Source: an uncultured bacterium
GTDB lineage: Bacteria > Patescibacteriota > Minisyncoccia > UBA6257 > GWB1-50-10
Reading direction: 5' to 3'
Assembly: GCA_903827975.1 (NCBI GenBank)
Contig: CAIKKG010000031.1
Location: 3,717-67,716, forward strand
DNA: 64,000 nucleotides
Shown here: positions 6,089-56,719 of the stretch, piece by piece
Position numbering within the stretch: the first letter of the stretch is position 1
How the letters are laid out: each line of letters opens with the position of its first letter
Position numbers and translations under genes: made by a program
The notes under the pieces: generated by a model
What the model saw: only the letters and a program-made list of their open reading frames with translations
What the model was told of the DNA's origin: nothing
Database searches by the model: none

Positions 6089-6227
6089 AAATATATTATA
6101 CCCTGAATAAAAAATCTTATCTCATAAGCTGTTTAGAAGCTGATGAATCAGAATATGTGCCTTTACAAAACGCTAAGTATGTGTAATGATATGTGAGCTG
6201 GGCTGATGCCCTTTTACAAGGAGAAGT

Positions 6228-6548
6228 ATGAGAACGAGCTTCGCTGCGAGGAATATCCTCGCCAAGAAGAAGCGACTGACGGTGCAGTACACCATAAGTC
6301 GCTCCAATCCCCGCTTCCGCGGGGCCTGCAAGTGTGGGTCTGCGGAGGCCACGACCCTCACCGTCGACGTGAAGAGCGTCAGTGGAGAAGATGGGGTCCT
6401 TTCCCAAAAGGACCACGTCGCCAAGGCTGCGGGCCGTAAGGTCCAAAGCAATCTAGGTGCCGGGAAACGCCTCTGCGAGCACTGCTTCAAGCAGACGCTC
6501 GAGGTGGCCTCCCGCCCAGACGCACTGGGCCAGGTCTTCGCGAGCTAG
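6228..6548 (+). CDS. Hypothetical basic 106-aa protein with a CxC...CxxC zinc-ribbon-like motif, encoded in a ~60% GC island
   Basis: SD AAGGAG (6218-6223) 4 nt before the ATG; third codon positions ~80% G/C in this frame; terminator immediately downstream; no recognisable family. Confidence 0.5.
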   Translation: MRTSFAARNILAKKKRLTVQYTISRSNPRFRGACKCGSAEATTLTVDVKSVSGEDGVLSQKDHVAKAAGRKVQSNLGAGKRLCEHCFKQTLEVASRPDALGQVFAS

Positions 6549-6570
6549 TTTCGCAAAGACCACACAATAC

Positions 6571-6599
6571 CCGCGCTCCAATGGAGCGCGGTTTTTTTA
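6571..6599 (+). terminator. Rho-independent terminator of the GC-rich ORF
   Basis: CCGCGCTCC-aatg-GGAGCGCGG followed by TTTTTTT. Confidence 0.7.
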
Positions 6600-6629
6600 T
6601 TTCCAATTAAAGGGTATGATAGAGCTAAG

Positions 6630-9999: not shown

Positions 10000-10074
10000 G
10001 GAGCCAATGGTCGGAGTTGAACCGACGACCCACGCTTTACGAAAGCGTTGCTCTACCAGCTGAGCTACATTGGC
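9999..10074 (-). tRNA. tRNA-Thr (anticodon CGT), CCA encoded
   Basis: Hand-folded cloverleaf: acceptor GCCAATG/CATTGGC, D-arm AGCTCAGCTGGTAGAGC, anticodon stem ACGCT/AGCGT with loop TTCGTAA, T-arm GTCGG-TTCAACT-CCGAC. Confidence 0.8.
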
Positions 10075-10159: not shown

Positions 10160-10536
10160 TATTGAAGTAAGTCATAAGCCGGATTCTGTATCGTCGGCCG
10201 TTAAGCCAACTAGTGATAATTCATCTTGACCCGCGATTACTCGCAAGTTCTAGCGATTCTCCACTCATATAAATACGAATGACACGATCTTGCACTCTGG
10301 TAAGGATTTTGCCGTTTCACCTTCGCCTTGTTGTCCCTATAGCGAAGTTAAGCCACCTACGTTGGGATTGGGCTTCCTTTGGCTTTCGCCTAAGGCGTCA
10401 CTGCTCGCACCTCTGTCCTCGCGAACGACGGGGGTTACCCGCTACCATTATCAATGGCATAGCCACTGACTAAGTGTCCGGACTTTCCTCTCCTCATTAT
10501 TTCTAATAAAGAGCTATCACCTGTCTTACTTCATTT
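10160..10536 (-). ncRNA. rnpB: RNase P RNA (bacterial type A-like)
   Basis: Conserved 'GGAAAGTCCGGAC' near the 5' end and 'ACAGAATCCGGCTTA' near the 3' end; P1 pairing GAAGTAAG/CTTACTTC between the ends; GC-enriched structured region with no credible ORF. Confidence 0.75.
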
Positions 10537-36702: not shown

Positions 36703-36787
36703 GGAGGGGTCGCATAGTGGTCTAGTGCGCAGTCCTGGAAAGACTGTATACCGCAAGGTATCGAGGGTTCAAATCCCTCCCCCTCCG
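36703..36787 (+). tRNA. tRNA-Ser (anticodon GGA), class II with a long variable arm
   Basis: Acceptor GGAGGGG/CCCCTCC, D-stem GCA/TGC, anticodon stem CAGTC/GACTG with loop CTGGAAA, variable arm hairpin ATACC-gcaa-GGTAT, T-arm GAGGG-TTCAAAT-CCCTC. Confidence 0.85.
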
Positions 36788-41166: not shown

Positions 41167-42522
41167 ATGGTAATTCGAAACACACTTAGAAGAATTGTCT
41201 TCCTTGCATTTATAACACTGTTTTTAGTTGTGGGGACATATCTGACAATAAAAATGCTTGGATTTGTTATTGATACAAAACATATGCAACTCACGAAAGC
41301 GAGCGGAATTTTCGTTAGCTTCACACCAAGTGATTCTATTCTGTACTTAGACGGCGATGAATACCCTGGCAAGGTTGGCTTCATGGGTAAGGATATTTAT
41401 GTGCCTGGACTTATGCCTGGAACTCACACGGTATCACTAAAAAAAGATGGGTATTACGATTGGAACAAGGAACTCACACTTGAATCAGGAAGAGTTGCGT
41501 CAGCAAAAGACGTAACACTGTGGCCGAAGACGCTTACCCCGCTAGCGAGCTCAACTGATGTTTCTTCCTTTTGGTTAACAAAAAATGGTCCGCTCACTAA
41601 AAATAGCAAAGGGCAGCTTGCGATAAATAAAACAAAAATAAAAGGTAAAAATGTTATTTTATCTAATTCGGATTCTAAATTTGTAGTAACAAGCGATGCG
41701 GGAGCTTATTACTTTATGGATCTTGATAATACATCTACTACTATAAATGTGGCGACTGTATTCAACAAACTTAAAAGTGAGCAGTTAAAAATTAATGGGG
41801 TCACTGCAATACATGAGGTAATTTCACATCCATTCACAAGAACTACGCTCGTGATAACTACAAACTCATCAATATATCTTCTAGATATGAAGAAGATGTC
41901 ATTAGAAAAATTATTTTCAGCAGAAAAACTTGTTACATATGCAACAAGTAATAATTCAATTTTTGCTGTTGACTCAAGGGGTACTCTTACCGTGATGAAT
42001 CTGCTAATGCATACAAAATCTGAATATCCAATTCACTTGGAATTTGCATCACGCATTATTGCAGATCCAGAAGGTTCTAATCTAATAATTATTGATTCTG
42101 AGAATAAAGCATTCCTATATGAAGTTGGCGCGGAAATACTAAAGAAGATAGGAACGGATATATCATTTTTCTCATTCTCACCTGACTCAAAGCGAGCAAT
42201 AATAATTTCTAGAAGAGGAGAGGCGCAGATTATATATCTAAAAGATTATGAAGATAATGTAGTTCGTAAAAATGGAGATGTTAGCTCACTCATACTAAAC
42301 GAACAAGAAGATGCTTTAACATTCGCATGGATGCCATTAGAGCAAAATTACTTCCTCATTAAAGCTGATGGAACAATGATGATTGAAGAATTTGATATGC
42401 GCGGAAAAAGAAATATATATAAAATTGCAAAAGACGCAAAACAATTTGCGATTCACGATAATACACTTTATCTATTGAATAATTCGGGCCTACTTACCTA
42501 TCAGAAACTTTCTGCTAATTAA
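41167..42522 (+). CDS. PEGA-domain membrane-anchored protein with a C-terminal beta-rich (propeller-like) region
   Basis: N-terminal TM; PEGA-like 'YLDGDEYPGKVGFMGKDIYVPGLMPGTHTVSLKKDGYYDW'. Confidence 0.5.
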   Translation: MVIRNTLRRIVFLAFITLFLVVGTYLTIKMLGFVIDTKHMQLTKASGIFVSFTPSDSILYLDGDEYPGKVGFMGKDIYVPGLMPGTHTVSLKKDGYYDWNKELTLESGRVASAKDVTLWPKTLTPLASSTDVSSFWLTKNGPLTKNSKGQLAINKTKIKGKNVILSNSDSKFVVTSDAGAYYFMDLDNTSTTINVATVFNKLKSEQLKINGVTAIHEVISHPFTRTTLVITTNSSIYLLDMKKMSLEKLFSAEKLVTYATSNNSIFAVDSRGTLTVMNLLMHTKSEYPIHLEFASRIIADPEGSNLIIIDSENKAFLYEVGAEILKKIGTDISFFSFSPDSKRAIIISRRGEAQIIYLKDYEDNVVRKNGDVSSLILNEQEDALTFAWMPLEQNYFLIKADGTMMIEEFDMRGKRNIYKIAKDAKQFAIHDNTLYLLNNSGLLTYQKLSAN

Positions 42523-43416: not shown

Positions 43417-45930
43417 TTATAAAACTTTCTTCAAGTAATAACCCGTGAAACTATTGGCTCTTTGGGCGATATCCTCAGGCGTTCCCTCTCCAACTATACT
43501 ACCGCCACGCTCACCACCCTCAGGACCAAGATCAATTACCCAGTCTGCCGACTTAATAACATCGAGGTTGTGTTCAATTACCACAACGGTATTTCCTCGT
43601 GAAACAAGTCTTTGCAATACATCAAGAAGTTTTTGAATATCAGCAAAATGAAGTCCTGTTGTCGGCTCATCCAAAAGATAAATTGTCTTTCTTGTGTCAC
43701 GCTTACCGAGCTCAGCCGCCAACTTTATTCGTTGTGCCTCACCGCCTGATAAAGTTGTTGCGGATTGCCCAAGCTGAAGATAACCGAGACCAACCTCATC
43801 TAATATTTTAAGTCTGTCATAAAGCCAAGGAATGTCTTCAAAAAACTTTGCCGCCTCCTCAATTGTAGTTTGCAAGACATCATAAATATTCTTACCCTTG
43901 TACTCAACCTCAAGAGTCTCCCTATCAAAGCGCTTTCCTTTACAAACATCGCAGGTCACATAAACCGTCGGAAGAAAGTGCATTTCAATTGCAATTACGC
44001 CATGACCCTCACAGTTCTCACACCTACCACCTTTAACATTGAAACTAAATCTTCCGGGCTTATATCCTCGCACACGGGCATCCTCAGTTGCTGAAAATAA
44101 ATCACGGATAAATGACCAGGCCCCTACATATGTTGCCGGGTTTGAGCGAGGAGTTCTTCCTATTGCGCCCTGATCGATATTGATAACACGATTTATATAT
44201 TCAAGTCCTGTTATTCCCTTGTTAGCGCCAACTTTATAACTCGCACTGTTAAATTTATTTGCGAGATGCTTATATAACACATCATAAATTAATGAGCTTT
44301 TTCCTGAACCTGAAACTCCTGTTATGGCAGTTAATCTGCGCAGAGGAATCTCTACATCAATGTTCTTGAGATTATTTTCAGTAACCCCCTTCATTTTTAT
44401 TGACTCATGACCGCGCTTAACATTTCGTCGTTCTTTTGGAGCCTCAATAAATTCCTTCCCGCGTAAATAATCCAATGTAAGTGATTTCTGCGTTGTATCA
44501 TTTAAAATCTCTGGAACAGGACCTGCGGCTATTACCATTCCTCCATGAACACCGGCGCCAGGACCTATATCAACAAGATAATCGGACTCGCGAATTGTTT
44601 CCTCGTCGTGCTCAACAACAATAACGGTATTTCCAAGATCTCTTAAATCATGAAGTGTTTTAATAAGCTTAGCGTTATCACGTTGGTGTAATCCAATTGT
44701 AGGTTCATCAAGAATATATAGAGTTCCAGTAAGGCGTGAGCCGATCTGAGATGCCAGACGAATACGCTGCGCCTCACCACCAGAGAGCGTGCCCGCGCGC
44801 CTATCAAGTGTCAGATATTCCAAACCAACATCAGCTAAAAATTTTAGACGATTTCTTATCTCACGCATCGGGAGCTCTGCAATTTCCTTAAACTGAGTAT
44901 CTTTTTCCGTTTGCGCAATTTCAAAAAATTCATTTGCGTGCGAAACAGAAAGCCCAGTGATTGAGGCAATGTTTTTACCGCCAATTAAAACATTTAGAGC
45001 CTCCTCCTTTAATCTCTTTCCATTACAGACCTCACAGATTTTTTCTGAAAAAATACTCTCAGTTCCTAAACCGCTACACCCGGGACACATTCCATAAGGA
45101 CTATTAAAAGAAAATAATCTAGGCTCAATTTCAGGAAAAGAAAATCCATCATTCGGACAAGTGAATTTTGCCGAGAGTGAGACCTCCTCATCCGTTATTA
45201 TTGTCACCACATCATTACCATGTTTTAGTGCTGTCTCAATAGCCTCAGAGAGACGAAGACGATTATCTTTTTCTCCAAAATTAAGTCGCGCAGGCATCCT
45301 ATCTACTACAAGATCAATCGTGTGTTGTTTATAACGACTCAAATCAACCTTATCTCTCAAAGAATAATATTTTCCATCAACTCTTATTTCAGAAAATCCA
45401 GTGTTTAAGAAATCATAAAGCAACTGATAATACTCACCCTTTCTTCCGCGAACCACTGGCGCCAATATAACCATATTTTTCCCCACCTCATTTTTCTTTG
45501 AAATCTGAACGGCAACATCAACGATTTCTTCAATCGTCATTTTTTTAATTGCATTACCACATCTTGGACAAAATGGTTTTCCCGCACGAGCAAAAAGCAC
45601 GCGCATGTAATCATATATTTCAGTTATTGTTGCAACAGTAGAACGAGGATTTGCTGAGTGACTTTTCTGGTCAATAGAAATTGCTGGAGATAGACCTTCA
45701 ATCTCATCAACGTCTGGCTTATCAAGACGGCCCAAAAATTGTCGCGCATAAGCAGAAAGAGATTCTATATAGCGACGCTGCCCTTCTGCAAAAATTGTAT
45801 CAAAAGCTAATGATGATTTTCCTGAACCTGAAAGACCCGTAAATACGGTCATCTTTCCACGAGGAATCTCTAAATTTATATTTTTGAGATTATGTTCTCT
45901 TGCTCCTTTTATTATTATTTTGTCTTGCAT
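43417..45930 (-). CDS. uvrA: Excinuclease ABC subunit A (837 aa, compact)
   Basis: '[18 protein letters not shown]' aligns with E. coli 'MDKIEVRGARTHNLKNI'; two ABC ATPase modules and Zn fingers. The tracker start (GTG at 45969) reads through a GC hairpin and was rejected. Confidence 0.9.
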
Positions 45931-46004
45931 AACGAAATGGCCCGGCACTTCGCGTGCCAGGGATACCACAGACGAACTTTAGTGTTCGAAATAAAAAAAG
46001 TCAA

Positions 46005-46045
46005 TCAACTAAAAATAAAAAGGCCCCCGCGGTTAGGCGGGGGCA
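46005..46045 (-). terminator. Strong rho-independent terminator downstream of the GC-rich ORF, upstream of uvrA
   Basis: GCCCCCGC-ctaac-GCGGGGGC followed by CTTTTTATTTTT on the minus strand. Confidence 0.75.
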
Positions 46046-46063
46046 GACAATATTTGGCCGATA

Positions 46064-46714
46064 TTACTCGGCGGGTGCGGCCTTCTTGGCCCTGGGCTTG
46101 CGCCTGGGGGTTGGAGCCGAAGCAACCAGCTCTGCCGGAGGCGGGACTACCACCAAGGGCTCGGGCTGATTTGCCATCCTGAGTTTAAGAAACTCACCCG
46201 CAGTGATGATGCGCAGACCACGACGAACGTCGTAGTAAAGCGCTACGGTCATCCCAGCCGAATCGTCCGAATGGACTGGCAAAACATCACCCGGCTCCAT
46301 TACAACGATGCCGTCTCCGACGACCTTCCTGCTACTAGTGATGCTCCAGCCGTAGGGCAGATCATCATCAGGCTCCTTTGGCCAGATGCCTGTCACCCGT
46401 ATCAGAATGCTGGTATCTGGGTCACCATCCTCCTCGGCAGAGAGGAGGTGGAAGTACTTGAGCCCCTCTGTGGTGCTCGCTCGGTCTTCGAGCTTCATCA
46501 GTGCGGTGGCAAAGATGCGACCGTTCTTCACGGTCGGGGGGTTCTTGAAAAAGAACCCCACTTTCTGGCACCACTGGTCCTTGCCATATCGGCCGAGAAC
46601 CACAGATTGGTGCGTCTCCTCGCCTTTCTTGGTGATGGTGGTGACGATGCCCGCAACTACTCGGGCAACTAAGGTACCTGCAGAATTCTGGAAAAACATA
46701 CTAAAACACTTCAT
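46064..46714 (-). CDS. Hypothetical 216-aa protein encoded mostly in ~60% GC DNA, with a Pro/Lys/Arg-rich C-terminal tail (PRRKPRAKKAAPAE). No family recognised
   Basis: ATG at 46714 preceded by GGAGG-6nt spacing; AT-rich first ~14 codons then a GC-rich body; consensus promoter upstream and terminator downstream; lies between uvrB and uvrA. Confidence 0.55.
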   Translation of the reverse strand: MKCFSMFFQNSAGTLVARVVAGIVTTITKKGEETHQSVVLGRYGKDQWCQKVGFFFKNPPTVKNGRIFATALMKLEDRASTTEGLKYFHLLSAEEDGDPDTSILIRVTGIWPKEPDDDLPYGWSITSSRKVVGDGIVVMEPGDVLPVHSDDSAGMTVALYYDVRRGLRIITAGEFLKLRMANQPEPLVVVPPPAELVASAPTPRRKPRAKKAAPAE

Positions 46715-46925
46715 TAGAAACCTCCTGCGCCACGAAGGGCGCAAAACCTAAAATGATGCGGATTATTTTTCCTGCCCCGCACCAAAAGGTGGGCAGTTGC
46801 TCTCAGACGAGAAGCGCACTGAATACCTAAAAATAGATAGACACGCAGTACGCCACTCATCTAAAAGTAATTAAATTAAAATCTATTACGTTTTCAATGT
46901 GCTTTTATAATACGATAACAAATGT

Positions 46926-46954
46926 ATTCTACCCTAATTATATGATTTTGTCAA
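46926..46954 (-). promoter_or_regulatory. Near-consensus sigma70 promoter (TTGACA-17 nt-TAGAAT) driving the GC-rich ORF through a ~200-nt leader
   Basis: Minus-strand read TTGACAaaatcatataattagggTAGAAT, immediately 3' of the uvrB stop. Confidence 0.55.
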
Positions 46955-46971
46955 TACAAATTCTGCGCACG

Positions 46972-49026
46972 TTAACCTCTCTTTGGGGTGTTTTTTTCTT
47001 TCTTTTTTGTGCTTTTTAGGGCCTCTTTTTTAATATCATCTATCTTTTGAGATAGTATTTTTATTTCCTCGCGCAAGATAGTTGCAAGCTCAAAATTGAG
47101 TTCCTCTGCGGCCTCACGCATTTCTTTTTCCTTTTCTTTAATTAATACATCAAGAACCTTTTTTGATTTTGGAACTACTCCTAGCTCTATACTCTCAATT
47201 TTACCAATTGGTAAAATATCTTTTATCTCCTTCTTAATTGTTCTTGGGGTAATATTATGCTTCTTATTATATTCAAGTTGAATCTTTCTACGCCTTCCTG
47301 TTTCACGTATTGCTCGCTCCATTGAACCAGTTATATTATCCGCATACATAAGAACCTCACCACTAACATTACGCGCTGCACGTCCTATTGTTTGAACGAG
47401 TGCCGTCTCACTTCTCAAAAATCCTTCCTTGTCAGCATCCAAAATCGCAACAAGTGAGACCTCAGGCAGATCTAATCCTTCACGAAGAAGGTTAACGCCA
47501 ACTAGTACATCAATCTCTCCCCTTCTCAATTTAGTAAGAATCCTAATTCTATCCAGCGTTTTAACATCACTATGTAAATAAGTTACTTTAATTTTCCTCT
47601 CTTCAAGATATGCGGATAAATCTTCAGCCATTTTTTTTGTAAGCGTGGTTACAAGAACACGCTCTCGCTCAGCATCAGGCCTACTGATATGTTTTTCGAT
47701 ACGCATTATTAAATCCTGCACCTGACCTTTCGCGGGAAGAATTGTGACAATCGGATCAACAAGACCAGTTGGACGAATAATCTGTTCAACAATCTGCCCA
47801 CCATGTTTTTTAGACTCATCTAATTCATACTTACCAGGGGTGGCGGACACATATACAACCTGTCCTATGCGACCGTTAAACTCCTTAAATGTAAGTGGTC
47901 TGTTGTCAGCAGCAGATGGAAGACGAAATCCAAACTCAATAAGTGTTTTCTTTCGCGCCGCATCACCAGCAGACATTCCAGAAATTTGCGGTACGGTAAC
48001 GTGTGACTCATCAATAAATGTAATAAAATCTTTTGGAAAATAATCGAGAAGCGTGTCAGATGGCTCACCTGCTGGACGTCCTGAAAGATGACGAGAATAA
48101 TTCTCGATTCCGTTGCAATACCCAACCTCACGTATCATCGCCAAATCAAACTTAGTTCTCCTCTCAAGGCGCTCAGCCTCAAGATACTTTCCCGTTTTTT
48201 CAAAATATTTTAGCTGAGCTTTCAATTCATTCTGAATCTCATTAATGGCGCGCTCCCTTTCCTCAGGTAATGTAATAAAGTGCTTTGCTGGAGCAATAAA
48301 AATCTCATCACGCGTAGGTGTTTTTCCAGGAATAAATCCAGCAACTGGATCAATCTCATAGATTGTTTTAATTACATCATTTTTAAGCTCGAAGTTAAAA
48401 ATAACCTCTCTGTCTGTAGGCATTATCTCCCAGTTGTCTCCTCGAAGACGAAATGTGCCCCTGGTTAGGTCTGAGTTCGTGCGGTTAAAATGCAATTCAA
48501 CTAGTTTACGAACAAAAGACGGGCGGTCTATTGTATCCCCTTTTTTAAAATGAAAAATATGGTCTGCATAAACCTGTGGCGTACCAAGTCCATAAATACA
48601 CGAGACTGACGAAACAACGATTACATCACGGCGCGTAAGAAGCGCGGTTGTTGCAGCATGACGCAACTTATCAATCTCCTCATTTATCATCGCCTCCTTA
48701 CCTATATATGTGTCTGACGTAGGAATATAAGCCTCAGGTTGATAATAGTCATAATACGAAACGAAATAGTGAACTGAGTTTTCAGGAAATAATTCACGAA
48801 GCTCATTTGTTAATTGTGCGGCAAGTGTCTTGTTATGAGCGATTACAAGTGCGGGGCGTTCTATTTCCTTAATAACATTAGCCATCGTAAATGTCTTACC
48901 AGAACCAGTAACACCTAGTAGCGTCTCCTGAGTTATGCCTTTTTTTATACCACTAACAAGCGCCTTAATCGCTTTTGGTTGGTCACCAGCGGGTTTGTTT
49001 TCGCTAACTAATTTAAAAAGGCTCAT
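46972..49026 (-). CDS. uvrB: Excinuclease ABC subunit B
   Basis: 'MSLFKLVSENKPAGDQPKAIKAL' aligns with the E. coli UvrB N-terminus; 'GVTGSGKTFT' Walker A; full-length similarity. Confidence 0.9.
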   Translation of the reverse strand: MSLFKLVSENKPAGDQPKAIKALVSGIKKGITQETLLGVTGSGKTFTMANVIKEIERPALVIAHNKTLAAQLTNELRELFPENSVHYFVSYYDYYQPEAYIPTSDTYIGKEAMINEEIDKLRHAATTALLTRRDVIVVSSVSCIYGLGTPQVYADHIFHFKKGDTIDRPSFVRKLVELHFNRTNSDLTRGTFRLRGDNWEIMPTDREVIFNFELKNDVIKTIYEIDPVAGFIPGKTPTRDEIFIAPAKHFITLPEERERAINEIQNELKAQLKYFEKTGKYLEAERLERRTKFDLAMIREVGYCNGIENYSRHLSGRPAGEPSDTLLDYFPKDFITFIDESHVTVPQISGMSAGDAARKKTLIEFGFRLPSAADNRPLTFKEFNGRIGQVVYVSATPGKYELDESKKHGGQIVEQIIRPTGLVDPIVTILPAKGQVQDLIMRIEKHISRPDAERERVLVTTLTKKMAEDLSAYLEERKIKVTYLHSDVKTLDRIRILTKLRRGEIDVLVGVNLLREGLDLPEVSLVAILDADKEGFLRSETALVQTIGRAARNVSGEVLMYADNITGSMERAIRETGRRRKIQLEYNKKHNITPRTIKKEIKDILPIGKIESIELGVVPKSKKVLDVLIKEKEKEMREAAEELNFELATILREEIKILSQKIDDIKKEALKSTKKKEKNTPKRG

Positions 49027-51966: not shown

Positions 51967-54405
51967 CTATTCCTTCTTAGCTCTTGGTTTAGGCGTTTTC
52001 TTACCAAGCTCCATTATCATCTTAATAATTGAATCTGGATTTAGTGACATACTTTCAATTCCCTCTTCCACCAAAAATCTTGCAAAATCGGGATAGTCAG
52101 AAGGCGCCTGACCGCAGATACCAATATACTTTTTCTTTGCACGACACTTAACAATGATTTCTGAGATAAGCTTTTTAACAGCTGGATTATTCTCATTAGC
52201 AATGTGAGTAACGATGCCTGAATCTCTATCAAGTCCAAGCGTGAGCTGTGTTAAATCATTTGAGCCAATAGACATTCCATCAAATATTTCCAAAAACTCG
52301 TCGGCTAAAAGAATGTTTGATGGTATCTCGCACATTACATAAACTTTAAGTTTTTTATCTGTCTTCCTATCAAGTCCGTGCTCTGCCATAGCATCAAGAA
52401 CCTGCTTACCCTCCTCAGGTGTTCTACAAAAAGGAATCATTGGAACAACGTTCGTAAAGCCCATCTCCTCGCGAACATGCTTCATAGCGAGACACTCTAA
52501 TCCGAAGGCTTTTTTAAACTTCGGGTCATAATAACGTGACGCTCCTCTCCAACCAAGCATTGGGTTTTCTTCGTGAGGCTCATATAATTCTCCACCGATA
52601 AGCTTACTGTACTCATTCGTCTTAAAGTCAGAAAAACGAATTATCACCTCATTTGGGTAAAGAACAGAAGCAATTTTAGCGATACCTCTTGCCAAGCGAT
52701 CAACATAATAACGCTCCTTATTTTCATACCCCTCGGTAATCTCTTCTATCTCGCGGAGAGTTTTTCGAATTGCTTGAGTCTTTGGTCCATGCTTCAACTT
52801 CTTATAATCAATGAGTGCATTTGGATGAACTCGAATATGTGATGCAATAATAAATTCCAAACGACCAAGTCCCACACCTTTTGCTGGTAGATAGTGATGC
52901 TTAAATGCCTCATCTGGAGAACCAATGTTCACCATTATTTTTGTCTTAATTTTAGGTAATTTATCAAGTCTGTGCTCTAAAATTTCAAATGGCAAAATTC
53001 CATCATATACATTGCCAACCTCACCAGATGAACAATCAACTGTTACCTCGTCTCCATTTCGTAATTTCTTTGTTGCAACCTTGGAACCCACAATACAAGG
53101 GATTCCTAATTCACGGGAAACGATGGCTGCGTGTGATGTGCGTCCTCCTTTATCGGTCACGATCGCAGAAGCAATTTTCATAATTGGTTCCCAATCTGGA
53201 TCAGTAATTTCGGTTACGAGAACCTCACCCTTTTCAAAATTTTCAATATGTTTTGCGTCTCTCAATACGCGAACCTTGCCTGCACCAATCCTGGCGCCTA
53301 CAGCGATTCCATTTACCAAAACATTGCTTCTCTTATTAAGTCGGTACTCTTTATATACATTCTTATCCTCACCAGCATGAATTGTCTCAGGTCTTGCCTG
53401 CACAATAAATAATTCCCCAGTCTTTCCATCCTTTGCCCACTCAATATCCATAGGTCGATAATGACCAGCCTTACCTGAAAAATGTTTTTCAATCTGAACG
53501 CACCATGTTGCAAGCTTTATGACCTCTGCATCTGTTAAACAAAATTTCTGTTCATCTGCCAACGAAACATATTTCTGCTTCGTTCCAAATAATGAGTAAA
53601 CGAGCTTAACATTTTTCTTACCAAGCTCTTTTGCAATTATCGGATTAAATCCACCCTCAAGCGTAGGCTTGAAAACTATAAACTCATCTGGAATAACCTT
53701 ACCCTGCACAATAAATTCTCCGAGCCCATAGATGCCATTAATAACAACGACTTTATCGAAACCAGTCTCTGTATCAATTGTAAAAGCCACACCCGATGCT
53801 GATAAGTCAGAGCGTACCATCCTCTGAATACCAACAGAAAGTGCTGTATCGAAATGAGAAAATCCCTTATCAGCACGATAAGAAATTGCGCGATTCGTAA
53901 AAAGTGAAGCAATACACTTTCTTGTAAAATGAACAACATCACTAATACCTCGTACATTCAAAAATGTCTCCTGCTGTCCTGCAAATGAGGCGCCTGGAAG
54001 ATCTTCTGCTGTTGCAGATGATCGAACCGCGACATCAATATTTTTACCGTATTTTTTTGATAATTCGGCGTATGCTACAGCAATTACATCCTTTAGTTCT
54101 TTAGGCAACTCGGCTTTTAAAATAGCGGTTCTTACTTTCTCTCCACGAACCTGAAGGTTTCGCATATTATGCGTATCAAGATCAGCAAGTATCTCCTTTA
54201 CCTGTTTATCCAAGCCCGTCTGCTCAAAAAAATAGCGATATGCGTCTGCTGTAAGAGCAAATCCGTCAGGAATATTAACGCCAAGCGGAACGAGGTTAGA
54301 ATACATCTCGCCAAGTGCAGCATTCTTACCACCAACAAACGGAACGTCCTCAATCCTTGTATCGCTAAACCATTTTATAAACTGTGCGGATTTTTCTTTT
54401 GCCAT
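51967..54405 (-). CDS. ppsA: Phosphoenolpyruvate synthase (pyruvate, water dikinase)
   Basis: PEP-utilising His motif 'GGRTSHAAIVSRELGIPCIVG'; ATP-grasp N-terminal domain; 812 aa. Confidence 0.85.
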   Translation of the reverse strand: MAKEKSAQFIKWFSDTRIEDVPFVGGKNAALGEMYSNLVPLGVNIPDGFALTADAYRYFFEQTGLDKQVKEILADLDTHNMRNLQVRGEKVRTAILKAELPKELKDVIAVAYAELSKKYGKNIDVAVRSSATAEDLPGASFAGQQETFLNVRGISDVVHFTRKCIASLFTNRAISYRADKGFSHFDTALSVGIQRMVRSDLSASGVAFTIDTETGFDKVVVINGIYGLGEFIVQGKVIPDEFIVFKPTLEGGFNPIIAKELGKKNVKLVYSLFGTKQKYVSLADEQKFCLTDAEVIKLATWCVQIEKHFSGKAGHYRPMDIEWAKDGKTGELFIVQARPETIHAGEDKNVYKEYRLNKRSNVLVNGIAVGARIGAGKVRVLRDAKHIENFEKGEVLVTEITDPDWEPIMKIASAIVTDKGGRTSHAAIVSRELGIPCIVGSKVATKKLRNGDEVTVDCSSGEVGNVYDGILPFEILEHRLDKLPKIKTKIMVNIGSPDEAFKHHYLPAKGVGLGRLEFIIASHIRVHPNALIDYKKLKHGPKTQAIRKTLREIEEITEGYENKERYYVDRLARGIAKIASVLYPNEVIIRFSDFKTNEYSKLIGGELYEPHEENPMLGWRGASRYYDPKFKKAFGLECLAMKHVREEMGFTNVVPMIPFCRTPEEGKQVLDAMAEHGLDRKTDKKLKVYVMCEIPSNILLADEFLEIFDGMSIGSNDLTQLTLGLDRDSGIVTHIANENNPAVKKLISEIIVKCRAKKKYIGICGQAPSDYPDFARFLVEEGIESMSLNPDSIIKMIMELGKKTPKPRAKKE

Positions 54406-54412
54406 ATTTTTT

Positions 54413-55693
54413 TTATATTTTTATACCTACTATTAAATCTGAAACATTAGACCCAGTACTTCCAGTCATTAGGAAGTCACCTGCATACTCGAAGAATTTA
54501 TACGACATGTTTTCCTCGAGATATTTTTCAGGACTCAGACCGAATCCTTTTGCCTTTTCTAAGGTCATTATATCACAGAGTGCGCCTGCAAAATCTGAGT
54601 TATCCATTCCATCCGACGCTATAGACATGACAAGTTCACCCTTTCCTACAGTTCTTGATGCACTAAGAACCAGTTCCATTCCGCGCCCTCCCTTTCCTGG
54701 CTTTTTTACAGTAACAGTAGGCTCTCCGCCATACAATAATATTGTTTTACTTGGAGCAGAATGTAATTCCTCCACAATTTTTGCTCCAATATCACGCGCC
54801 TCACCGGAAAGTGTGTTTGTTTTAATTATAGGAGTATATCCGAGCTCCTTCGCTTTTTCCTCCATTGCTTTAAGTGCAACCTTGTTCGAAATAATCACTG
54901 TATTCCAAACATTTTGGAAATAAATATCTTCTTTAGGTGTTTCAATAAGCGATGCCTCTATTAGTGCATTATTAGAAAGATTATACTTTTCCAAAATCTT
55001 TTTTGCATCATTTATTGTAGTTGTATCCTTAACTGTTGGTCCTGAAGCAACTAGCCCAATGTCATCACCCGGAACATCGGAGAATATCAAAGATGCTACA
55101 CGTGCTGGATATGCATACTTTGCTAAAAATCCACCGCGGGCAGATGAAATATGCTTCCTTAAAACATTAATCTCCTCAATTGTTGCTCCAGCATCAAAAA
55201 GCTTTTTTAAAATATTTGCCTCACTCTCACATGTGATACTTTGTGGCTGACAAAGAAGTGTTGAACCACCGCCAGAAATAACAAATATCACAAGGTCGCG
55301 TTCAGTCATTCCTGAAAGCATTTTTATTATCTCACTCGTTGCCTCAACGTTTGCAATCGTTGGAAATGGATGAGTTCCACAATAAGTCCTCACTTTATTA
55401 AATTTTTCCTCACTCGCACATAGAACAATGCCGTCTGCAATAATATCTAATAATGTTTTTTCAATTACGCTAACCGCCTCGGCTGAGCATTTACCGACTC
55501 CTACAACAAATATTCTTCCTATATCCTCAAGTGGAAAATACTTACCACTTATAAAAAGGGTTCGCTCTTTGAGAACAAAATTTTTCTCCATTACATCATG
55601 CGTATCTATTGCCTGTAGTGCTGTCTCCGCAAGCATCATAGCAACATCGCGCACTTCACTAGTCGCCAAATCGTGGAAATTCTTTATTTTCAT
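54413..55693 (-). CDS. Glycerate 2-kinase, MOFRL family
   Basis: DUF4147-like N-terminal domain plus MOFRL-like C-terminal domain. Confidence 0.6.
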   Translation of the reverse strand: MKIKNFHDLATSEVRDVAMMLAETALQAIDTHDVMEKNFVLKERTLFISGKYFPLEDIGRIFVVGVGKCSAEAVSVIEKTLLDIIADGIVLCASEEKFNKVRTYCGTHPFPTIANVEATSEIIKMLSGMTERDLVIFVISGGGSTLLCQPQSITCESEANILKKLFDAGATIEEINVLRKHISSARGGFLAKYAYPARVASLIFSDVPGDDIGLVASGPTVKDTTTINDAKKILEKYNLSNNALIEASLIETPKEDIYFQNVWNTVIISNKVALKAMEEKAKELGYTPIIKTNTLSGEARDIGAKIVEELHSAPSKTILLYGGEPTVTVKKPGKGGRGMELVLSASRTVGKGELVMSIASDGMDNSDFAGALCDIMTLEKAKGFGLSPEKYLEENMSYKFFEYAGDFLMTGSTGSNVSDLIVGIKI

Positions 55694-56196: not shown

Positions 56197-56719
56197 CGCA
56201 ACAATTTACTAATTTAGCCACAATGTCTTCGACTGCCCAGGGCTTCTTTGTTCCTTCTGTGTCATGCACATTTATCTGATCATCATTAATTTTTTTAACA
56301 TTACCTAGATCAACAAGCTTCAAGCGTAATGCCCAGAACATTGAATACACGTGATATGCTTTATCAAACATATCTTTTGCATCCTCCTTCTTGCCCTCAC
56401 CATTAAACTTAGTACCAACCTCCATTAGGCGCATTGATGCGGCAAGTAAGTGCTTTGAAATGCACCATGTCTCACCCTCATTCACATCCATCATCCTTTT
56501 CAAAAGTGACTTCCTGATTTCTCTCGTCTCTGCAAGCAAATCAAAATACTCGTCCTTCTTTGTTTTTTCTGCAGTAAAGAAAAAGTGTTCCTCCAAACTA
56601 ATAAGGTTCATTATCGCAATTGATAAATCTTCCTCCATAGAAAGGTCAACGGTTCCACTCTTCTTCATCTCTTCAACCTTAGCAATAAGTTTCTTAATTT
56701 TTTCGTCGTTTTCGTTCAT
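56189..56719 (-). CDS. Hypothetical cytoplasmic protein
   Basis: No family recognised; sits between the thioredoxin-like and CcdA genes. Confidence 0.4.
   Translation of the reverse strand: MNENDEKIKKLIAKVEEMKKSGTVDLSMEEDLSIAIMNLISLEEHFFFTAEKTKKDEYFDLLAETREIRKSLLKRMMDVNEGETWCISKHLLAASMRLMEVGTKFNGEGKKEDAKDMFDKAYHVYSMFWALRLKLVDLGNVKKINDDQINVHDTEGTKKPWAVEDIVAKLVNCCDE

Follow-up and report, generated by a model that had tools for sequence, protein, structure and literature searches.

The 64-kb stretch of DNA analysed here, from contig CAIKKG010000031.1 and called the window below, carries a small gene of its own between uvrB and uvrA, in the same orientation as both. Positions given are window positions; L-numbers denote compared loci and P-numbers family proteins. 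The gene is an open reading frame (ORF) of 216 amino acids (aa), with its coding sequence (CDS) at 46064..46714 on the (-) strand and its ATG at 46714. Its product has a predicted all-β core (residues 1-183) followed by a Pro/Ala/Val-rich linker and a basic tail. The C-terminal residues 184-216 (PEPLVVVPPPAELVASAPTPRRKPRAKKAAPAE; 46067..46165, (-) strand) have an isoelectric point (pI) of 10.3 and consist of 27% Pro and 21% Ala. Upstream lies a predicted sigma-70-type promoter, TTGACA-17-TAGAAT at 46926..46954 (-), which is near-consensus, matching 11 of 12 positions in a consensus scan. It is followed by a 5' untranslated leader of ~200 nt (46715..46919 (-), structured core 46712-46868) that contains a Shine-Dalgarno (SD) sequence, AGGAGG at 46726-46721 (-), 6 nt ahead of the ATG. 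Downstream, an intrinsic terminator at 46013..46044 (-), GCCCCCGC-loop-GCGGGGGC plus a T-run, has its stem at 46044-46023 with 8 G-C pairs. An earlier note on this DNA had picked out these parts, as well as a GC hairpin in the leader (CUGCCC..GGGCAG at 46796-46772), and all of them are present, the promoter as a sequence match.

The composition of the unit is also as first described. The GC content of the cassette is 0.55-0.59 compared with 0.39 for the window, and its GC content at third codon positions (GC3) is 0.66 compared with a median of 0.314 (standard deviation, sd, 0.063) over 64 window ORFs, 5.5 sd above it. The window has only two such GC-rich islands, the other being at ~6.2-6.6 kb; the earlier note's count of two cassettes was correct. 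Together, these parts form a natural protein-coding transcription unit with a single gene: promoter, structured leader, CDS and intrinsic terminator.

The unit is not confined to one assembly. The identical 216-aa protein is found on at least 17 contigs of independent ENA, NCBI and Logan assemblies from several samples. The related genome L001 (GCA_037131435.1), 98.1% identical to the window across 20.6 kb, carries the gene in the same slot, coding for a protein 67% identical to that of the window. More distant orthologs, 34% identical in L129 and 36% in L126-128, occupy the same uvrB-uvrA slot with the same flanking synteny, in relatives whose UvrB, UvrA and PPDK are 90%, 93.5% and 86% identical to those of the window. 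L130 represents a fifth lineage with the same leader and terminator. The promoter -35 box, the spacing and a TA(G/A/T)AAT -10 box are kept at L001, L129, L126 and L130, as are the SD and ATG in the orthologs. The terminator is kept at the same four loci, with compensatory variation in L129 (GCTCCCCGC..GCGGGGAGC). Because orthologs share slot and synteny across backbones with 86-94% protein identity, the insertion into the uvrBA spacer of this clade is ancient, and the unit has persisted there while the host backbone diverged to ~90% UvrB identity.

The spacer is otherwise narrow. In 40 loci from other bacteria, drawn from the UvrB matches listed (≤60% identity), the uvrB-uvrA gap is mostly 8-150 nt, and no copy of the cassette gene lies between the two genes. 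No close relative with an empty slot was among the matches listed. This comparison supports the earlier description of a self-contained, compositionally atypical unit within a normally tight gene pair. Four Patescibacteria-type loci among the matches listed (L008, L009, L014 and L026) have spacers of 0.7-3.3 kb without any relative of the cassette family. Since these lineages hold unrelated inserts there, the spacer looks permissive, and it may be a general insertion hotspot in candidate-phyla lineages. The L126 slot holds, in addition to the ortholog, a 162-aa ORF and a 1295-aa LTD/PKD-repeat protein. Three independent assemblies of a related organism, L126 (1-290), L127 (1-255) and L128 (1-255), all stop 255-290 nt ahead of the orthologous gene, at the leader's promoter-proximal end; these contig breaks and the short fragment contigs fit population heterogeneity at the locus. 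The host is probably an uncultured, Patescibacteria-like lineage, as judged from its best UvrB matches (57-60% identical, among the matches listed).

Near the 5' end of the gene, codons 9-14 contain a KpnI-PstI-EcoRI cluster at 46673..46688, reading GGTACCTGCAGAATTC on the + strand. The same 16-mer in the other orientation, GAATTCTGCAGGTACC, has the EcoRI, PstI and KpnI sites with a one-base overlap between neighbours. The earlier note considered this cluster very unlikely by chance and likened it to a cloning junction or fusion point. On such a reading, a host-like N-terminus would have been joined there to a foreign GC-rich insert in a synthetic construct, a vector contaminant or an assembly chimera. 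Three familiar six-cutter sites within 16 bp near a rise in GC, with a KpnI site that occurs once in the window, do resemble a polylinker. A first-order Markov model, however, gives an expectation of 0.33 triplets of abutting 6-bp palindromes within 16 bp per 64-kb window, and 29% of simulated windows have at least one. At a span of 18 bp the window itself has a second cluster, at 55199. The choice of three well-known enzymes is post hoc.

Comparison of alleles accounts for the cluster. The identical 16-mer is carried by the window-type contigs L002-L005, whereas L001 reads GAAGTCCGCAGGGACC and has none of the three sites. The two alleles differ here at three positions, all third-codon positions (AAT/AAG, TCT/TCC, GGT/GGG), and the more distant orthologs also lack the three sites. 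The cluster is therefore a coincidence arising from three third-position differences in one allele. The abrupt switch from AT-rich to GC-rich codons reported at the sites is likewise allele-specific, because GC3 of codons 1-14 is 0.43 in the window allele and 0.71 in the L001 allele. Nor is there a fusion point, because the N-terminal MKCF(S/T) is family-wide, distant members reading MKCFTV, MKCYTF and MRCFTF; across the sites, the residues FQNSAGT align with FQKSAGT in P0001 and FQTVGGK in P0003. The sites also differ from those of cloning-vector polylinkers: they overlap by one base, a conserved reading frame contains them, and the sister allele does not have them. Nor do they match any plasmid record; with 45931-46971 as the query, blastn (word size 11) found nothing in 72,556 plasmid and 50,697 phage records. 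With the exact protein on independent contigs from different projects, and orthologs filling the same slot in four further lineages, the check in related genomes that the earlier note had called for counts against a synthetic origin, to which we give practically no credence. Since the engineered-polylinker idea is wrong, no contamination question arises.

The window and L001 alleles differ greatly over most of the gene. Approximately 190 of the 400 differences between the two over 20.6 kb lie in 45985-46581. Going into this tract, identity falls at ~46581 from 0.87-1.0 to 0.47-0.8 and returns to 1.0 at ~45985. The tract (45985..46581, (-)) covers codons ~45 to the stop, the terminator and ~30 nt past it, and its edges are sharp, one inside the CDS and one just beyond the terminator. 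Over the gene body the synonymous divergence (dS) is 0.97 and the nonsynonymous divergence (dN) 0.285, compared with a dS of 0.014-0.09 and a dN of 0.001-0.003 in five flanking genes. Synonymous divergence of the alleles is 20- to 70-fold that of the flanks, at an overall genome identity of 98%. The dN/dS between the alleles is ~0.29; the gene is under purifying selection, and from this ratio it follows that it codes for a functional protein.

Between window and L001, the cassette has ~140 times the dN of the backbone. If the gene were evolving steadily at that ratio, its divergence from L129 would be saturated, yet 34% identity remains, which favours replacement of one old allele by another. 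The difference between window and L001 would then have arisen by such a replacement through conserved flanks. Divergent alleles would be exchanged by homologous recombination, with the leader and 5' CDS on one side and the terminator and uvrA flank on the other, and the polymorphism at the locus would be balanced or diversifying, and not the outcome of fast clock-like evolution. A targeted hypermutation in situ, by a diversity-generating retroelement (DGR) or another local mutator, could also leave divergence limited to ~600 bp with sharp edges in otherwise near-identical genomes. The substitutions in the tract, however, are of all 12 types (74 transitions, 100 transversions), with 15 gap columns, and are not adenine-specific. 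The tract also runs through the terminator into non-coding DNA, and the dN/dS of 0.29 reflects long purifying selection. No second (template) copy of the tract was found in the 64-kb window, where no systematic search for a reverse transcriptase was made. DGR-type mutagenesis was excluded on the substitution types, the gap columns and the lack of a second copy in the window, and hypermutation of any kind is a very improbable source of the tract.

Allele replacement of this kind has well-known counterparts. Pherotype (comQXP), capsule/O-antigen and restriction-specificity loci are hypervariable islets that are kept as divergent alleles and exchanged via conserved flanks. The window locus resembles them in its fixed slot, flanks ~99-100% identical, sharp edges, dS 20-70 times that of the flanks and purifying selection. 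It differs in that the tract codes for a single small cytoplasmic-looking protein with no partner, receptor or immunity gene, and in that two alleles were sampled at the window locus. Elsewhere between window and L001, secondary clusters of differences occur at 52000-53200, 41200-42400, 48200-48400 and 56200-56400, with 6-11 per 200 bp against a background of 0-4, and PPDK has a dS of 0.09 against ~0.02 in its neighbours. The clusters may be further, milder recombination tracts.

High GC3 is shared by the gene across its lineages. It is 0.66-0.76 in all four slot lineages, where host genes have 0.30-0.49, and the GC3 of family genes exceeds that of neighbouring genes in 14 of 16 family loci. 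Since an old insertion still has this composition in every slot lineage, the excess is maintained rather than decaying; it characterises the family and does not point to a recent arrival. A recent horizontal acquisition from a GC-rich donor, for example as a phage moron that has not yet drifted to the composition of its AT-rich host, would account for a GC3 5.5 sd above the window median. It would fit the insertion relative to the usual uvrBA arrangement, the presence of family members on a phage-like contig of 67.5% GC, and the candidate hammerheads that flank family genes as they do genes in prophages (PMC3088659). Against it, gene, promoter, leader and terminator share one slot in lineages whose backbone proteins are 86-94% identical, and phage, plasmid and IMG/VR collections yielded no relative. 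We regard such an acquisition as unlikely. Repeated re-import of alleles, which is part of the explanation preferred below, is a softer form of the same idea. With low confidence, we suggest that the GC3 excess comes from such re-import or from GC-biased gene conversion at a recombination hotspot.

The leader is better conserved in sequence than the CDS and appears to be structured. Its 221 nt fold at -74.7 kcal/mol, with a z of -5.2 relative to shuffles, and five orthologous leaders have a mean identity of 79%, far above that of the CDS. A model with three helices (P1, P2 and P3) leaves 93.9% of cells paired, compared with 37-57% when the partners are slid, and shows double-sided covariation at 4 pairs. 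P1 (46799..46868, (-)) is a long imperfect hairpin of ~29 pairs, with 93.7% of cells paired in the five orthologs; 3 of its pairs vary at both bases and 8 at just one. Window and L001 differ in the leader at one position, 46850, where a U.G pair becomes C-G. P2 (46772..46796, (-)), CUGCCC...GGGCAG with 6 pairs, is the GC hairpin of the earlier note. Its outer pair covaries, being C-G in window and L001 and U-A in L129, L126 and L130, while RNAalifold also offers an alternative long-range pairing of the P2 segments, which makes this fold ambiguous. P3 (46721..46742, (-)), GCGCC...GGCGC, has its stem at 46742-46727, adjoining the SD at 46726-46721. Its 5 pairs are invariant in all orthologs and so uninformative on structure; the position next to the SD is conserved, and in the window the stem can lengthen into the SD via UUUU:AGGA.

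A covariance model of the leader (R1) detects all five syntenic loci, with scores of 150-164 bits, and the window contains no other match to it. In L097, a P1-like hairpin found with a covariance model precedes a long-form, non-syntenic family gene by 85 nt. No Rfam family matches the leader, low-threshold matches to the cassette being noise. In particular, the type III hammerhead (RF00008) gives no match in the window at the gathering threshold, nor at E ≤ 5 across 45850-47050. Other family loci do have hammerhead-like elements. Sub-threshold type III matches precede the family gene by 42-99 nt in L103 (5848-5902 and 8301-8355), L118 (2320-2374) and L107 (1460-1514); in L103 a second match comes after the gene, and further copies lie nearby in L095 (5181-5235) and L113 (4338-4392). 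These candidates score 32.9-46.4 bits (E = 4e-7 to 2.5e-3) and come from unrelated metagenomic lineages. Another candidate, at ~7190-7245 in L088, was recognised by eye. From these sequence matches the family looks like an undescribed ribozyme-associated gene family; neither this protein family nor the occurrence of hammerheads in Patescibacteria was found described in the literature.

Single prophage genes flanked by hammerheads are already documented in bacteria, an example being ardA of Agrobacterium tumefaciens and of Legionella (Perreault et al. 2011, PMC3088659). The likeness is that other family loci have a hammerhead-like element upstream, that the window gene has the conserved structured P1 at the equivalent leader position, and that it too is a small accessory single-gene unit. 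The window leader, on the other hand, has no hammerhead, its protein is unrelated to ArdA or any PHROG, and the gene lies in a housekeeping spacer, with no recognisable prophage around it. It is an acknowledged open question why self-cleaving ribozymes gather at certain bacterial genes (PMC6765202), as is the purpose of gene-flanking hammerheads in bacteria (PMC3088659, PMC6765202).

In the proposed mechanism the leader would set expression post-transcriptionally. P1 could be a processing or protein-binding site, analogous to the hammerheads at that position in other family loci, and P3 could modulate ribosome access to the SD. In a far more speculative proposal, P1, possibly with P2, would be an RNA-processing motif of a new kind, which might even be a self-cleaving class in its own right, and would stand in for type III hammerheads; the family would then be ribozyme-associated as a whole, and its GC3 excess and allele turnover would come from a dedicated renewal process, recombination-driven or RNA-mediated, and not from ordinary horizontal transfer. 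We consider this a long shot.

Two further motifs were seen by eye in family leaders. A motif GTTC(A/T)TTGAAAAT, which reads GCACATTGAAAACG in the window (~46884-46897), occurs in many of them, ~30-40 nt downstream of the -10 box, with P1 or the hammerhead following closely; the leaders with it are those of the window, L126, L129, L130, L097, L090/L115, L101 and L102. In the long-form loci L095, L100, L103, L104 and L122, CAYGCCUA-[hairpin]-UUGGCARGRGC lies directly 5' of the SD, 80-20 nt upstream of the ATG.

The protein belongs to a small family. A HMMER scan of 1.84 billion representative proteins found 13 relatives, and a profile search of 5.8 billion proteins found 28, none of them annotated. 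In hmmsearch, P0003 (E = 2.4e-32), P0004 (9.9e-28) and others (1.6e-7 to 9e-4) are covered over residues ~20-190; the close homolog P0001 is recovered at E = 1.6e-49 by a profile that itself includes the window protein and P0001. The family domain of ~190 aa has about 30 members. It can stand alone, stand alone next to a translationally coupled partner gene (four distinct loci), or form a tandem pair at the N-terminus of long-form proteins of 670-830 aa. AlphaFold2, run with a 27-sequence alignment, gave a mean predicted local distance difference test score (pLDDT) of 76.6 and a predicted template modelling score (pTM) of 0.68, with 12 strands and one helix. The predicted fold is an all-β core, modelled confidently; the tail residues 184-216 have a lower pLDDT of 66-75.

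Searches of Pfam, PHROGs, PADLOC and NCBIfam with the window protein, canonical and long-form members and the partner protein gave only noise-level matches. The PADLOC-DB v2 hidden Markov models matched none of these proteins (0 families), and the family profile had 0 matches to PDB sequences at E ≤ 10. The family thus has no detectable relative of known function or fold, and the earlier statement that it was unassigned stands. This lack of annotated homologs or domains is what a spurious ORF in GC-rich non-coding DNA or an RNA gene would show. Such an ORF would not be expected to have a dN/dS well under 1, full-length HMMER alignments to ~30 proteins including tandem-domain long forms, a confident AlphaFold2 core, and an SD and ATG conserved among orthologs; the chance that this gene is spurious is negligible.

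The most conserved motifs of the family are LGE.GRGR.YEKV, a YTRG..G.W loop and GAHGDAGRIG.W.DGLV.M.PGD. The window protein keeps L40, G41, P59, F88, L91, G109, W111, D134, P141, G142 and D143. In place of GRGRRY it has GRYGKDQW, and both the ~10-residue YTRG loop and GAHGDAGR are absent. By sequence it forms a divergent subfamily with P0001, P0003, P0004 and P0007, and it has gained the Pro/Ala/Val linker and basic tail. The window protein, P0001, P0003 and P0004 have in common a basic patch of the (K/R)KPRAK type and end in -AE, and the tail may contact nucleic acid. The partner genes of the short forms, 150-200 aa long, overlap the end of the family gene (L088:6576-7037, L090:6582-7181, L116:604-1203 and L118:3033-3485). 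Their products are mutually homologous, with the motif VHEY..G.G.KRWP.F.IDWNN.G ... AP.GW.ENIA.QF.DERDY. The partner gene has no Pfam, PHROG, NCBIfam or PADLOC match and is absent from the window.

The explanation that best fits these observations, and that we consider probable, is that the unit is a natural, ancient, hypervariable accessory gene of an uncharacterised family with a conserved structured leader. As to function, it is possible, and we propose it tentatively, that the protein is a cytoplasmic conflict-type accessory factor, acting in interactions with phages or mobile elements or in self/non-self discrimination, with the basic tail touching nucleic acid. Three things favour this role. 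First, the population pattern combines divergent alleles, each under purifying selection, with a slot that stays fixed. Second, family loci elsewhere have island-like contexts, with runs of small unannotated ORFs, Phage_VG64, Csx3, TrmB-like regulators and nearby tRNAs. Third, there is the ribozyme association. Clustering of recurrent neighbours gave only weak recurrences, namely TrmB-like regulators in 3-4 loci, and coiled-coil and unannotated proteins.

Several points weigh against this explanation and its parts. Recombination was deduced from two alleles only, and the donor was not identified. The taxonomic placement depends on UvrB best matches at 57-60% identity (among the matches listed). 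The structure of the leader was drawn from 5 orthologous leaders, 4 of them effectively distinct, with an invariant P3. All hammerhead matches are under the Rfam gathering score (32.9-46.4 compared with 48.5 bits). Lacking GRGR, the YTRG loop and GAHGDAGRIG, the window protein may not share the activity of canonical members. For the conflict-type role the evidence consists of the population pattern and a loose context. Three pattern scans of IMG/VR, with different alignments, found no relative, tblastn of the long form P0013 against 50,697 phage genomes (INPHARED) and 72,556 plasmids (PLSDB) found none, and 0 PHROGs and 0 PADLOC families match. An origin from mobile elements is therefore not directly supported.

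In the earlier note the location hinted at an accessory function associated with DNA repair or DNA binding. Such a protein could be a repair factor coupled to UvrB/UvrA, for example a DNA-binding partner acting through the basic tail. The gene is indeed co-oriented between uvrB and uvrA, its position is conserved in the clade and its tail is basic. However, its own promoter and terminator insulate it from uvrB and uvrA, and the cassette promoter lacks the GAAC-N6-GTTC palindrome of the uvrA promoter (described below). Elsewhere, family members have no uvr genes beside them. The slot itself also holds a 162-aa ORF and an LTD/PKD protein in L126 and, in other lineages, is occupied by unrelated inserts of 0.7-3.3 kb. 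A core repair cofactor would not be expected to be so variable between alleles. Participation in nucleotide excision repair is unlikely, and a repair factor of this kind is a quite improbable reading of the gene.

Two other known systems resemble the unit in outline. Like an integron gene cassette, it has a compact single ORF, a foreign-looking composition and a long imperfect inverted repeat nearby. It differs in having its own conserved promoter and terminator and a hairpin that is 5' of the ORF and co-transcribed, and in being a single unit between housekeeping genes, with no array. No attC-type R'/R'' cores were seen by eye, no attC model search having been run, and there is no integrase among the annotated neighbours at 36-57 kb. 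The integron cassette was rejected on the promoter and terminator, the single unit and the lack of an array. Type III toxin-antitoxin loci (ToxIN-like) share the order of promoter, structured RNA and small ORF (~170-200 aa in ToxIN-like loci); this identity was considered and rejected.

The lead from this locus is a protein family for which Pfam, PHROGs, NCBIfam, PADLOC and the PDB offer no detectable relative, by sequence or by fold, and which is accompanied by a structured leader or, for other members, by a candidate self-cleaving leader. The family is a compact, recurrent gene-plus-leader unit in which the hammerhead and a different conserved hairpin appear interchangeable. It keeps its GC3 far above that of its hosts for long evolutionary times and, in one lineage, very divergent alleles at a fixed housekeeping slot, which makes the locus a natural example for localised allele replacement and GC3 maintenance in streamlined AT-rich genomes. 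Its main interest lies in the RNA-protein association, the maintained GC3 and the allele turnover.

The other GC-rich island contains a 106-aa ORF (6228-6548, (+), GC3 0.78) with a strong terminator at ~6571-6599, just upstream of obg. Among 5.8 billion proteins its product matches only itself, and it has no domain match. The ORF is present in two other samples on contigs of 522-582 bp, both starting at window position 6172, which suggests a strain-variable junction there too. The earlier note had proposed that the island at 6190-6600 and the uvrB-uvrA cassette form a two-component system. This is not supported: the 106-aa protein has no homologs, it does not co-occur with the cassette family in any fetched locus, and the codon-usage cosine between the two islands is 0.73.

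Downstream of the cassette, a perfect palindrome, CGAACACTAAAGTTCG, lies at 45973-45988, overlapping the -10 box of the promoter predicted for uvrA (TTGACT-17-TAAAGT, 46004-45976). No other CGAAC-N(4-8)-GTTCG occurs in the window, and this one is a candidate LexA-like operator with an unusual 6-nt spacer. The palindrome is conserved in L001, and AGAACACTAAAGTTCG is found upstream of uvrA in L126, with a GC hairpin after it (45941-45961 in the window). SOS/LexA regulation of the cassette was rejected, since this sole palindrome sits at the uvrA promoter and not at the cassette promoter. Across the window, the sole Rfam matches are a class A RNase P RNA at 10160-10532 (-), at 118.5 bits modestly over the gathering score of 100, and two tRNAs, at 10002-10074 (-) and 36703-36787 (+).

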